Made by a program: the position numbers and the translations under genes. Shown here in pieces: positions 678 through 8,251 of a DNA stretch of 11,170 nucleotides. The stretch comes from a virus. Each line of letters starts with the position of its first letter. Position 1 is the first letter of the stretch. The stretch is from UHGV virus genome UHGV-1780727. The stretch is one strand, 5' to 3'. Below the pieces are notes generated by a model. The model worked only from the letters and a program-made list of their open reading frames with translations. It had not been told where the DNA came from and made no database searches.

Positions 678-698
678 AAAAAAACCGCCTCAGCGGTT
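678..698 (-). terminator. Intrinsic-terminator-like hairpin plus T-run on the minus strand, between the G-T stop and the tape measure RBS
   Basis: Minus-strand stem AACCGC/GCGGTT with 4-nt loop (683..698) followed by a T7 run (plus-strand A-run 678..684), then GGAGA RBS and ATG at 659. Confidence 0.55.
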
Positions 699-706
699 CT
701 CATCAT

Positions 707-1021
707 TCATGACTGTGCTGCAAAGCTCAGCGCGTCTTCCAGCGCCGCAAACGGATCCACCTCCGGCTTATCCTCATCCTCGCCCCAGCAGAGCATGGCG
801 TCCTTCAGTGCAACATTCATCCCCTGTGCCCCGAAAACCGCTTTCACGATCTGTGCATTACGGATATCCCCGCGCTCATCACCCAGCGGGGACACCCTGT
901 CAAACTCCATCCACATCATCGCCTCGCTCGCACTCAGGCTGTGCCGCAGTTCGGATAAGGTGCGCCCCAGACGGAGCGCAAGTCGCATCAGAAAGCGAAT
1001 TTCCGGGCGGGCTACTTTTTT
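707..1021 (-). CDS. Frameshift extension of the tail assembly chaperone (T-like segment of a G-T fusion), reached by -1 slippage from the G frame
   Basis: The ORF in the -1 frame relative to G continues in-frame from the slippery heptamer (KKVARPEIRFLMRLALRLGRT...) and ends at TGA 707..709. G / G-T arrangement sits between major tail and tape measure genes. Confidence 0.65.
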   Translation of the reverse strand, partial: KKVARPEIRFLMRLALRLGRTLSELRHSLSASEAMMWMEFDRVSPLGDERGDIRNAQIVKAVFGAQGMNVALKDAMLCWGEDEDKPEVDPFAALEDALSFAAQS

Positions 1022-1386
1022 CTGGCCGACTCTGCATCAGCGATCAGTTCCAGTGCCTGACGCAGCAACCGGGCATGTACCGGACCATAGACGGCCAGCA
1101 CCTGCTCACGGTCGTCCGGAGTGAACACCCGTTGCAGGTCAGTATCACACAGGACATCGCAGAACAGCGTCACATCCGCTTCCAGGTTACGGCGGGTTTT
1201 CGCCACCACCGACAGGGTATCGTCATCCTCTCCATCACCATTGAGCACTTCCTGCCACAGATACCAGGCCTCTGCCGAAGGCTCCCGCAGCACCACGCTG
1301 ACATTTCTCCATTCCGGCACCTTCACCGTTTTATGACGGAACCCCGACAGTCTGGCCAGCGCCAGTGTTTTCAGATCTTTTGCCAT
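1012..1386 (-). CDS. Tail assembly chaperone (lambda gpG-like), 124 aa
   Basis: ATG at 1386 immediately after the major tail protein stop; small acidic protein ending ...ESARKK with a slippery site at its 3' end; position between major tail and tape measure genes. Confidence 0.75.
   Translation of the reverse strand: MAKDLKTLALARLSGFRHKTVKVPEWRNVSVVLREPSAEAWYLWQEVLNGDGEDDDTLSVVAKTRRNLEADVTLFCDVLCDTDLQRVFTPDDREQVLAVYGPVHARLLRQALELIADAESARKK
1015..1021 (-). other. Programmed -1 ribosomal frameshift slippery heptamer A_AAA_AAG (minus strand)
   Basis: Minus-strand sequence ...GCC AGA AAA AAG TAG; the heptamer A AAA AAG is the classic dnaX-type slippery motif, and the -1 frame continues open for about 100 codons. 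Confidence 0.7.
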
Positions 1387-1391
1387 AAGCC

Positions 1392-6064: not shown

Positions 6065-6275
6065 TCGCCATGCTCCGCATCACGTTTCTTTTTCTGACCT
6101 GCCGGACGTCGCGCTGTGATGTACTCCGCCTTCCCCAGGCGAACCAGCACCTCCGCACACGGCTGTGCCACATCACGGATATCCCCGGCCCGGGCATCAT
6201 GCGTGCCCTGCAGATACTGGATTTTTGCCATCTGTTACTGCGGGAAGCTCGCGCCTCCCGCCCTCCTCATCAGAC

Positions 6276-8213
6276 TCAGCCACCGGACGCAGTTCCGTAG
6301 TTCACACCGGTGATCACCGCCACTGCCGCGGTACGGCGACGACGCCAGTTGATCCAGCGCTCCGCACGGATGGCCACGCTGCCGGTCTGAAACATGGAGA
6401 CCAGTTCCACCGGTGACGGTGTGCTGCTGTCGCTGGTCGGTTCAGACTGCATCTCCAGTGACGCTTCACGGGACATATCCACCGCCACACCGCCGTCATC
6501 AGCCAGATAAATATCCGGTGCATTCACCAGTACCAGCTGGTCACCCACATACTGGGAGACAATCACCGGCAGCCCCTGGAAGGTCCCGCCCAGCAAGGTC
6601 ATGTCCGGATATTCCTTCTGCCCCAGCGCATTTTTACGCATGGACAGCGCCAGGGCATTCGTGCTGGACATCAGCCAGACCGCACCGGTGGGCTGCAGAT
6701 TTGCCGTCACAAACTGGCCAAACGCGGCCTCGGCATCCGCATCCGGGTTACCGGTTGATGCCGTGCCCTTCACATCATGGGTGATGGACGCCGGGGAGAC
6801 ATCCGCCACCGCCGCTTTTTTCGGGTCCACAAAGTCTGTGTCCAGACGCGCCACCACCGCTTCCGCCAGCGCATTACGGACCAGTGCATCAGCAGCCGGA
6901 CTGGAAAAACGGATCAATTCTTCCGTCAGTACCGCAATGGCCGACACTTTCGCATGACTGAAGGTGATGGATTCAAAATCAAACTTCGTCAGGGGTCTGG
7001 CCTTACCCTCACCCACCCAGCCGGCAGCACCACCGGACACCTGGGCATGCACGCGGATATTGAACGGCACCTGACGAAGTGCAGGGATCCCGCCCTGACC
7101 AAATCGCCCGATAATGGTCTGCGGACGCAGGTAATCAATAAAGTCCTGCGCATATTCCTGGTATTCAGACAGGCTGCCTGCCCACTGCGGGTCCGTGGTG
7201 GTCCCTGCCCCCACCGCCGATTTCAGGACATGATGCAGACGGCTGTCATCCGGATACTGACGACGGGCCACTTCCAGGGCTTCAGAGCGGACACCTTTAG
7301 CCGCGGCCAGTGATTTGGCAAAGCGGGCGAAACCAATCCCCTTCTCCAGTTTCTGCTCAACACGGATCACCGGCGCTGAAGCCACCGTGGCCACATTCCC
7401 GTTACCGGCCTGTTTCACCGGCTGTGCCGTGGCGGCCTTACTGGTTTCCAGTTCACGCAGACGCTTCAGGTGCGCATCCACCTGACGGATTTCCGCTGCG
7501 GTGTTGTCGTAGTGCTCTTCCTCTTCCACATCCAGTGTGCGGCCTTCCTCTGCGGCTTTGTTCATGATCTCCTCAAGGGAGGCTGCCAGCGCCGCACGCT
7601 TGTTTTCAAAACTTTTAATCTGTTCACCAGTATTCATTGCTGACTTTTCCTTATGAAAAGAGGTTATTGACTGTGCCGAAGCGCCGGCAGAAGATGCGAT
7701 TTTCACCACCGGTTTCCGGTTGCCGGACGCGGCAGAAAACGGGCGGTCGAAATATTTAATGGTCCGGATGGTGCATTCCGCATTCGCGGGCACGGTGACG
7801 GCAGACACCTCCATCAGCTCCCAGCGCAGAAAATGCAGTCCGCCTCCGTCCAGATAAGTGTATTCATGGGGCCGGAAGCCCACAGAAAGCCCCCTGACCA
7901 GCCCGGTCTTAATGGCAGCCCAGGCCTCATCCAGCCGGGCTGCCATCTGGGAGGGCATCCCCGGCTCCGGCTTCACCAGCATTGCCGTGATTTCCAGCCC
8001 TTCCCTGACCCGACGCACCGTACACTGGCCTACAGGGCGGGAATGGTCATGCTGCCAGAGAAACGGGATCGTACTGCCAAACTCAGCCCCCTCCGGCTCC
8101 AGGATGTCACCATCCCGATCCGGAGAAGGCGTTGACGCAATCCCGGTGATCACCCGTTCATCCTCACTGAAGGATTTCACCGTCAGCAGGGAACAGGCCC
8201 GTTTAAGAGTCAC
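6276..8213 (-). CDS. Fusion protein: HK97-family prohead protease (N-terminal, about aa 1-170), coiled-coil linker, and HK97-family major capsid protein (C-terminal)
   Basis: 645-aa uninterrupted ORF; GTG start at 8213 with AGGAGG RBS 5 nt upstream. N-terminus GIASTPSPDRDGDILEPEGAEF...FLWQHDHSRPVGQ is protease-like; C-terminal half has HK97-type capsid features. Confidence 0.8.
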   Translation of the reverse strand: MTLKRACSLLTVKSFSEDERVITGIASTPSPDRDGDILEPEGAEFGSTIPFLWQHDHSRPVGQCTVRRVREGLEITAMLVKPEPGMPSQMAARLDEAWAAIKTGLVRGLSVGFRPHEYTYLDGGGLHFLRWELMEVSAVTVPANAECTIRTIKYFDRPFSAASGNRKPVVKIASSAGASAQSITSFHKEKSAMNTGEQIKSFENKRAALAASLEEIMNKAAEEGRTLDVEEEEHYDNTAAEIRQVDAHLKRLRELETSKAATAQPVKQAGNGNVATVASAPVIRVEQKLEKGIGFARFAKSLAAAKGVRSEALEVARRQYPDDSRLHHVLKSAVGAGTTTDPQWAGSLSEYQEYAQDFIDYLRPQTIIGRFGQGGIPALRQVPFNIRVHAQVSGGAAGWVGEGKARPLTKFDFESITFSHAKVSAIAVLTEELIRFSSPAADALVRNALAEAVVARLDTDFVDPKKAAVADVSPASITHDVKGTASTGNPDADAEAAFGQFVTANLQPTGAVWLMSSTNALALSMRKNALGQKEYPDMTLLGGTFQGLPVIVSQYVGDQLVLVNAPDIYLADDGGVAVDMSREASLEMQSEPTSDSSTPSPVELVSMFQTGSVAIRAERWINWRRRRTAAVAVITGVNYGTASGG

Positions 8214-8225
8214 ATCAGCCTCCTG

Positions 8226-8251
8226 AAAATAAAAAAACCGCCGCAGCGGTT
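8226..8251 (-). terminator. Intrinsic-terminator-like hairpin plus T-run on the minus strand, between the large terminase stop and the capsid RBS
   Basis: Minus-strand stem AACCGC/GCGGTT with 4-nt loop (8236..8251) followed by TTTTTTTATTTT, then AGGAGG and GTG 8213. Core nearly identical to the hairpin at 678..698. Confidence 0.55.

Follow-up and report, generated by a model that had tools for sequence, protein, structure and literature searches.

Conserved terminator-like hairpins at module boundaries of a Q-dependent lambdoid late operon in Stx-converting phages and Escherichia coli prophages

Terminator-like hairpins are known from the late operons of lambdoid phages, where they have been annotated since the genome of HK97 was described (Juhala et al., 2000, as cited in PMC3594210). 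Three such elements, each a G+C hairpin with an adjacent T-run, are analyzed here in the viral genome UHGV-1780727. The window, meaning the whole stretch of DNA analyzed, is 11,170 nt long, and the elements, called hp1, hp2, and hp3, lie on its minus strand. They are probably intrinsic (Rho-independent) terminators at the module boundaries of a Q-antiterminated late operon, which would stop polymerase lacking Q and would be read through by polymerase that carries it. No new mechanism is put forward.

HK97 (GenBank NC_002167) has seven sense-strand "putative terminators" annotated in its late operon. Two of these are positional homologues of elements in the window: 6692-6719, between the tail terminator and major tail genes, corresponds to hp2, and 8398-8422, just upstream of the tape measure gene, corresponds to hp1. 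Like the window, HK97 has a hairpin and T-run at these two tail junctions, followed by a ribosome-binding site (RBS) and a start codon, within a Q-dependent lambdoid late operon. The tail proteins share 75% (gp10-family), 48% (tail terminator), 67% (major tail), 63% (G), and 61% (T) amino acid identity with those of the window, and the N-terminus of the tape measure protein shares 83%. The stem-loops, however, are GAACCCGCC-AGAU-GGCGGGUUU and GACCCGC-UAUCAA-GCGGGUU in HK97, and a moron, gp15 (region 8203-8422), lies between T and the hairpin, where the window has none. The head module also differs, in that HK97 protease and capsid are separate genes, and hairpins are found at the portal/protease junction and after capsid, with none at terL/capsid.

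In lambda, a hairpin followed by T7 lies in the D/E gap (6099-6116), directly upstream of the major capsid gene of a Q-antiterminated operon, as in the window. Further hairpins are located after E, at I/J, at J/lom, and after lom, all of which are module or moron boundaries. On the other hand, tblastn detected no homology between the genes around these lambda sites and those of the window, and lambda has no such hairpin at U/V or T/H, where the genes abut or overlap. Phage L has a predicted intrinsic terminator that ends the morphogenetic module in an operon with a single antiterminated promoter; unlike the window, this phage is of the short-tailed, P22-like type, and its terminator has been predicted in silico only (PMC8022706). 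The same paper states that intra-operon terminators occur in lambdoid late operons and are not unique, that their roles are unknown, and that they could act through partial termination or by stopping transcription begun without antitermination (PMC8022706).

In the Stx phages, Q overrides an intrinsic terminator of this operon, tR', which lies just downstream of PR'. The PR' promoter of these phages is constitutively active and is halted at tR' in lysogens, and Q lets polymerase proceed past this point into the late genes (PMC7547250). The nozzle that Q forms on the RNA exit channel precludes formation of the terminator hairpin (PMC9388147). The tR' terminator is also the source of the small RNA (sRNA) StxS (PMC7547250). 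It is a promoter-proximal regulated switch that releases an Hfq-binding sRNA in lysogens, whereas hp1-hp3 lie ~10-17 kb further downstream and no Hfq-bound RNA maps to them.

Morons are promoter-gene-terminator cassettes in late operons, such as HK97 gp15 (PMC3594210). In relatives of the window, morons use the same gaps as hp1-hp3 and are bounded by hairpins. For instance, an open reading frame (ORF) with a KilA-N domain lies between the tail completion and major tail genes of locus L199 (8800-9587), flanked by two hairpins, and a zinc-ribbon membrane protein ORF of locus L200 (about 16260-16680) lies between T and the tape measure gene and is followed by a hairpin and T-run. The elements of the window, in contrast, are bare terminator-like structures, and their gaps contain neither an ORF nor a promoter-like site, so that they were not classed as morons.

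Anatomy and genomic setting of hp1-hp3

The first-pass annotation had reported three minus-strand elements made of a hairpin and a T-run, each followed by an RBS and a start codon, and all three are present as described. In each, a G+C hairpin, 6-7 T, a Shine-Dalgarno sequence, and the start codon follow one another within a stop-to-start gap of 47-65 nt. A weaker hairpin lies close to hp2.

8226..8252, minus strand: hp3, terminator-like, in the terL / protease-capsid gap; GAACCGC-UGCG-GCGGUUU at 8235-8252, U7 at 8231-8237, then AUUUU
2121..2156, minus strand: hp2, terminator-like, in the tail completion / major tail gap; core CCCGC-CGCGU-GCGGG at 2131-2145, U6 at 2125-2130
678..699, minus strand: hp1, terminator-like, in the T / tape measure gap; AACCGC-UGAG-GCGGUU at 683-698, U7 at 678-684
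2171..2187, minus strand: weaker second hairpin, AGGUCAC-GGU-GUGACUU with a T-rich run; overlaps the tail completion stop codon

The stems contain 5-7 G+C-rich pairs, or up to 9 with A-U and G-U extensions, and the loops are 4-5 nt long. The hp3 loop, UGCG, is a UNCG tetraloop closed by a C-G pair, and hp2 can be extended to 2127-2156 by an outer AAAACCC/GGGUUUU pairing. Calculated on segments of 31-33 nt, the folding energies are -10.8 kcal/mol (hp1), -8.5 kcal/mol (hp2), and -10.7 kcal/mol (hp3), with z-scores of -2.9, -1.3, and -3.2, respectively. The U-tracts lie immediately 3' of the stems and are co-oriented with all genes of the window. The elements thus have the G+C stem with a short loop, the adjacent U-run on the transcribed strand, and the compensatory changes by which intrinsic terminators are recognized. 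The hairpin at 2171..2187 is missing from some close relatives through a 7-nt deletion. A long-range helix between CCUG upstream of hp3 and CAGG of the RBS, which appears in the minimum free energy fold, was discarded: a common C-to-A variant weakens it, and relatives do not keep it.

All long ORFs of the window are on the minus strand, and the window shares 99% identity over its full length with Stx1a-converting phages and ~95% with phage 2851 (Pankowvirus). According to the annotation of phage 2851 and Pfam, the gene order on this strand is HNH endonuclease, terS, terL, a prohead protease-major capsid fusion, a small ORF, portal, a 353-aa ORF, adaptor, head closure, a gp10-family gene, tail completion, major tail, the chaperones G and T, and tape measure. 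The tail-module segment 600-2300, which holds hp1 and hp2, is 100% identical to E. coli O26:H11 prophages and is present in 1,246 of 5,426 complete E. coli genomes, with a maximum of 8 copies per genome. The window is the morphogenetic part of a Q-dependent lambdoid late operon and corresponds to the module of Sakai prophage Sp10, in which hp3 and hp2 are identical and hp1 is a second allele (allele 2, below); the three hairpins start at 1,950,278, 1,956,537, and 1,957,998 of NC_002695.2. Sp15, the Stx1 prophage of Sakai, was rejected as a carrier, for it has a different, lambda-like head module.

In Sp10, the gene for the antiterminator Q lies ~10 kb upstream of the module on the same strand. 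The order on this strand is Q, a tR'-like hairpin (76 nt after the Q gene), the lysis genes, HNH, terS, and terL onward; phage 2851 is arranged alike, and Q falls outside the window. Eight strong sense-strand intergenic terminator-like hairpins are found between Q and the tape measure gene of Sp10. A simple sigma-70 consensus scan found no site on the coding strand of the window, although so crude a scan would miss weak or activator-dependent promoters; genes downstream of each element would therefore depend on read-through.

The genes and initiation signals that flank the elements, all on the minus strand, are as follows.

8277..9938, minus strand: terminase large subunit gene (terL); stop codon TAA 8277-8279, 24 nt upstream of hp3
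8211..8224, minus strand: RBS AGGAGG (8219-8224) and GTG start (8211-8213) of the protease-capsid fusion
6276-8213, minus strand: prohead protease-major capsid fusion gene; PF04586 and PF05065 on homologues, and phage 2851 annotation
2174..2518, minus strand: tail completion / tail terminator gene (PF11367), upstream of hp2; stop codon TGA 2174-2176
2106..2118, minus strand: RBS AGGAGG (2113-2118) and ATG (2106-2108) of the major tail gene
1392-2108, minus strand: major tail gene (tail tube plus Ig domain)
1012-1386, minus strand: gene G (PF06222, from Pfam)
707..988, minus strand: gene T (PF06223), reached via a -1 frameshift from G; stop codon TGA 707-709, 8 nt upstream of hp1
657..671, minus strand: RBS GGAG (668-671) and ATG (657-659) of the tape measure gene; this gene continues past the window's low end

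The gene following hp3 had been called a capsid gene. It does encode the major capsid domain (PF05065), but in fusion with a prohead protease (PF04586), and so is not a capsid gene alone. A link between the elements and the major structural genes as such, also drawn in the first-pass annotation, did not hold: the elements mark module boundaries, and the hairpins of relatives also follow the capsid and major tail genes.

Conservation at the same junctions

By number, the terminator-like sites of the window do not exceed those of shuffled sequence. A loose terminator scan returned 11 sites, compared with 9.7 +/- 3.3 in shuffles, which is no excess; hp2 and hp3 ranked top, and hp1 was missed because maximal stem extension consumes its T-run. 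A stricter scan of the coding strand returned exactly three matches, hp1, hp2, and hp3, where dinucleotide shuffles gave a mean of 1.4 and reached at least three in 34 of 200 cases (not significant). All three lie inside short gaps that total ~175 of the 11,170 nt. Placement and conservation exceed chance, and the number of sites does not; given the lack of global enrichment, the case is built on placement and conservation.

Close relatives were represented by 80 viral contigs with capsid proteins at least 95% identical to that of the window. In these, the hp3 and hp2 stems are essentially invariant. The hp3 element varies only by a loop change from UGCG to UCCG or a basal A-U to G-U change, and hp2 by a single stem change at one locus (GGG to GGT). 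Two alleles of hp1 occur in otherwise identical flanks, AACCGC-UGAG-GCGGUU and AAACCUGC-UGUG-GCAGGUUU followed by U8. The second is longer by one base pair, with an insertion on each arm, and the difference between the alleles amounts to a replaced patch of ~35 nt.

For more distant relatives, one genome per species with a capsid alignment was taken, which gave 35 loci ranging from Enterobacterales to Pseudomonas, Acidovorax, Snodgrassella, and alphaproteobacteria. Hairpins were called by the same stricter scanner, ORFs were labeled by homology to the window proteins, and a hairpin with T-run was counted when found within 80 nt after a stop codon. The search of relatives that the first-pass annotation had called for finds the elements at the same junctions (the first, second, and fourth lines are those of hp3, hp2, and hp1):

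after terL: 17 of 17 Enterobacterales loci
after tail completion: 6 of 6 Enterobacterales loci (those with a homologous gene)
after major tail: 4 of 5 Enterobacterales loci
after T: 3 of 5 Enterobacterales loci
after capsid: 4 of 15 Enterobacterales loci

In the Enterobacterales loci, no hairpin with T-run follows portal, the 353-aa ORF, adaptor (Ad1), head closure (Hc), gp10, or G, and the background within ORFs is 0.065 hits per kb. Among the 17 distinct hairpins of the terL/capsid junction, stem positions 1-6 contain zero non-pairs, while double-sided changes occur at 4 positions (A-U to C-G, A-U to G-C, and C-G to G-C) and the loop takes 12 different forms. These pairs were counted by a script anchored on the loop-closing pair, because MAFFT had misplaced the 5' arm by one column where the loop has 5 nt. 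Most Enterobacterales loci share the layout of stop codon, ~17 nt, a 7-bp stem, a tetraloop, UUUUUUCGUUUC, AGGAGG, and ATG. Most of these relatives (L196-L208 and L223) also have the motif TGACA..ACGTCAGTTAA in the ~17-nt spacer between the terL stop codon and the hairpin, so that a small inverted repeat, TGAC/GTCA, precedes the hairpin; the lineage of the window has a different spacer.

Beyond the Enterobacterales, hairpins with unrelated stems are kept in the terL/capsid gap of Pseudomonas phage PAJU2, of Pseudomonas prophages, and of an Acidovorax prophage. Moraxella phage Mcat2 and a Snodgrassella prophage have ORFs between terL and capsid, and the hairpin and T-run lie just upstream of the capsid gene in the former and at the terL stop codon in the latter. 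The alphaproteobacterial relatives, with gaps of 10-20 nt, have neither hairpin nor T-run, so the T-run travels with the hairpin and is missing along with it. In locus L197, a hairpin precedes the tail tube gene even though the tail module is non-homologous (PF16460). This position-specific conservation, with purifying selection on stem and U-tract from Escherichia to Pseudomonas, argues that the elements are functional rather than incidental.

That hp1 and hp3 share a core and differ only in the loop is correct: 21 of 22 nt are common, and one loop base differs. Taking the near-identical core as a sign of common origin is not supported, however. The 21-mer AACCGCUGNGGCGGUUUUUUU occurs at least 178 times in viral contigs; 164 of these occurrences are the two homologous junctions of this phage family, and the other 14 fall in about five unrelated contexts with no common flanks, namely before a lambda-I-like tail gene, before three endolysin-type genes, between tail-fiber genes, and in low-GC contigs. 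Exact copies of the 21-mer, as AACCGCTG[A/C]GGCGGTTTTTTT, are found in seven viral contigs (L092, L109, L121, L125, L131, L112, and L142). The extra copies are mostly followed by an RBS and start codon (ATG) within 0-16 nt. When 164 distinct strong hairpins were pooled from the relatives and from lambda, HK97, and Sp10, 23% had CCGC/GCGG next to the loop, and UNCG made up 30% of the tetraloops. Since both are common among terminator hairpins, the likeness of hp1 and hp3 is largely that of any compact, C-G-closed, UNCG-type terminator, though copying between the two sites is possible. A mobile short repeat of the REP or BIME kind was rejected, as the flanks of the extra copies are unrelated.

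Termination and the alternatives

The first-pass annotation had interpreted the elements as intrinsic terminators that would need antitermination or else as RNA processing or stability elements, and the first of these interpretations agrees with their anatomy, the covariation of the stems, their setting downstream of Q in Sp10, the lack of a sigma-70-like promoter in the scan, and the annotation of HK97; termination and read-through would be the predicted consequences. The boundaries marked would be those of packaging and head (hp3), head completion and tail tube (hp2), and tail chaperones and tape measure (hp1). Polymerase that was not loaded with Q at the late promoter, arising from leakage through tR', from moron promoters, or from spurious initiation, would terminate at these sites as the hairpin formed in the RNA exit channel above a weak U:A hybrid. 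The structural genes would thereby be kept silent in the lysogen, and terminators in series would multiply the block, as fail-safe insulators. After induction, polymerase loaded with Q, its exit channel narrowed and extended, would not permit the hairpin to form and would make a single long late transcript, and relative protein yields would then be set mainly at translation by the strong RBS after each element. Read-through is expected both from the known mechanism of Q (PMC9388147) and because the tail genes downstream must be expressed. Term-seq data for Sakai have been deposited in GEO (GSE143631), from uninduced cells (PMC7547250).

Several points weigh against this interpretation. The stems are short and of moderate stability, so termination may be partial. 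The terminator-like sites of the window are, as noted, no more numerous than in shuffles. The constant spacing between hairpin and Shine-Dalgarno sequence would fit a role in translation equally well, as would the conserved UUUC(A/U)GG(A/G)G tract, which persists where the Pseudomonas T-run is interrupted. Finally, the biological need to insulate structural genes is an argument and not an observation.

The alternatives bear on the same features. The hairpins may instead block 3'-to-5' exonucleases once an endonuclease has cut the neighboring U/A-rich tract, defining stable mRNA segments for terS-terL, for the head genes, and for the tail tube-G/T block. Each hairpin does end a functional block, the AU-rich single-stranded tract after it could be an RNase E site, and the structure is conserved; processing would also be compatible with read-through terminators that have a second purpose. 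A stabilizing hairpin, however, needs no U6-U7, yet this tract is conserved with the hairpin and missing wherever the hairpin is missing. Stems of 5-9 bp are also far too short for RNase III, and an RNase III site was rejected, for the longest continuous helix is 7-9 bp where roughly 20 bp or more of double-stranded RNA are needed. The Hfq-CRAC orphan-peak table of strain Sakai (Tree et al., 2014) lists 64 peaks, none of them at the Sp10 junctions, which gives no support for an Hfq-bound sRNA and speaks only weakly against processing, since the cells were uninduced. Processing is therefore considered an unlikely explanation. The IsrK sRNA of Salmonella Gifsy-1 (Rfam RF01394) was likewise rejected: its matches, the only Rfam matches in the window, span the full model at 678-745 (27.1 bits) and 2125-2227 on the minus strand (18.2 bits), against a threshold of 50, with identity mostly in the terminator hairpin. 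A translational role, in which the hairpin would insulate the RBS from upstream coding sequence and the U-tract would act as an S1 or standby platform that raises downstream translation, is suggested by hairpin-to-Shine-Dalgarno spacing that is nearly constant across genera and by the UUUC(A/U)GG(A/G)G tract, which lies just 5' of the start codon and is the most conserved part of the junction even beside a degenerate Pseudomonas T-run. Two of the three downstream genes, capsid and tail tube, encode the most abundant virion proteins, and in unrelated phages an RBS and ATG usually come after the 21-mer. The third gene fits poorly, as tape measure protein is present in few copies per virion in lambda-like tails, and the equivalent hairpins of relatives precede low-abundance chaperone and portal-region genes. 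Moreover, anything squeezed into a gap of 50-60 nt will show constant RBS spacing. Such a role is judged distinctly unlikely.

The elements could also be partial attenuators during lytic growth, at each of which a fraction of polymerases would stop, grading mRNA dosage. This is one of the two possibilities raised for intra-operon terminators in the phage L paper (PMC8022706), and the modest stability of the hairpins suggests incomplete termination. The sites, however, precede the genes needed most (capsid and tail tube), where dosage grading would call for the reverse. Sampson et al. (PNAS, 1988) are reported to have found that translation mainly sets the ratios of late-gene expression in lambda. 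Polymerase loaded with Q, in addition, blocks formation of terminator hairpins (PMC9388147), and attenuation is accordingly rated very improbable. Chance hairpins without function would account for a total of sites no higher than in shuffles, but all three elements are found in short intergenic gaps, and the same junctions carry hairpins across genera, with compensatory changes and no broken pairs. These comparative data refute chance, which is scarcely credible.

Other features of the window and the module boundaries

Several further features were noted in and around the window. The slippery heptamer AAAAAAG (1015-1021) stops one base short of the G stop codon TAG (1012-1014), and the T frame (707-988) is the -1 frame, which is the classical arrangement for a programmed G/G-T frameshift. 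The 353-aa ORF (3642-4703) directly follows portal with an ATGA overlap and is without a Pfam match. Its position is kept in all relatives, including Pseudomonas phage PAJU2 (gp07), its counterpart in Sakai Sp10 has 407 aa, and the annotation of phage 2851 joins it to portal in one 860-aa "portal protein." The gap between the capsid fusion and portal (6065-6275, 211 nt) is without a terminator-like hairpin, though some relatives have a hairpin and T-run after capsid; it contains a 73-aa ORF (6010-6231) that corresponds to the hypothetical ECs_5438 of Sakai Sp10.

The gap between HNH and terS (10569-10697) contains five copies, in both orientations, of CAGTTAACAT / ATGTTAACTG, which include GTTAAC. 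One pair stands back to back and forms an 18-nt palindrome at 10679-10696, and a G8 run at about 10,73x and a C8 run at about 10,78x are also present. From its position, this repeat region is suggested to be the terminase-binding or cos region of an HNH-dependent packaging system. Just outside the window, upstream of the HNH gene (Sp10 about 10,820-10,870), the multicopy prophage sRNA HnrS (EcOnc11; Sakai 1,946,819-1,946,867, minus strand) has the Rz gene on one side and a DUF3950 gene on the other, and its orientation is antisense to the late operon. The Nextera transposase adapter GTCTCGTGGGCTCGGAGATGTGTATAAGAGACAG is found at each end of the window, at 10-43 on the plus strand and at 11137-11170 on the minus strand, and the low-end copy is preceded by the 9 nt TTAGCTGCA. 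The match to phages spans 44 to about 11129-11140, so the contig ends are library artifacts and not phage sequence.

Beyond termination, the hairpins might serve as portable boundary cassettes, that is, docking or recombination points for module exchange and moron insertion. Sequence identity among relatives breaks at terL/capsid (terL 84% vs. 66%, with capsid near 75%) and at tail completion/major tail (major tail 82% vs. 49%, with tail completion 54-61%), and in HK97 it breaks at T/tape measure (61% in T, 83% in the N-terminus of tape measure). The same stem-loop, AACCCGCUCCGGCGGGUU, is found at terL/capsid in L200 and L204 and at tail completion/major tail in L199. These identity breaks, the recurring stem-loops, the hairpin-bounded morons, and the ~35-nt patch of hp1 are hints of such a role. 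The breaks, morons, and stem-loops, however, are also expected from selection for intact genes alone, and the cassette function is thought unlikely.

In comparison with the hairpins annotated in lambdoid late operons since HK97, the addition made here is comparative: the elements are position-specific, and their stem and U-tract are under purifying selection in a very common E. coli prophage module. Should they act as terminators for polymerase lacking Q, they would insulate the structural genes of the lysogen. They provide well-defined sites for the question of insulation in Stx prophages, for which leakage of late transcription is relevant to the production of toxin and virions.

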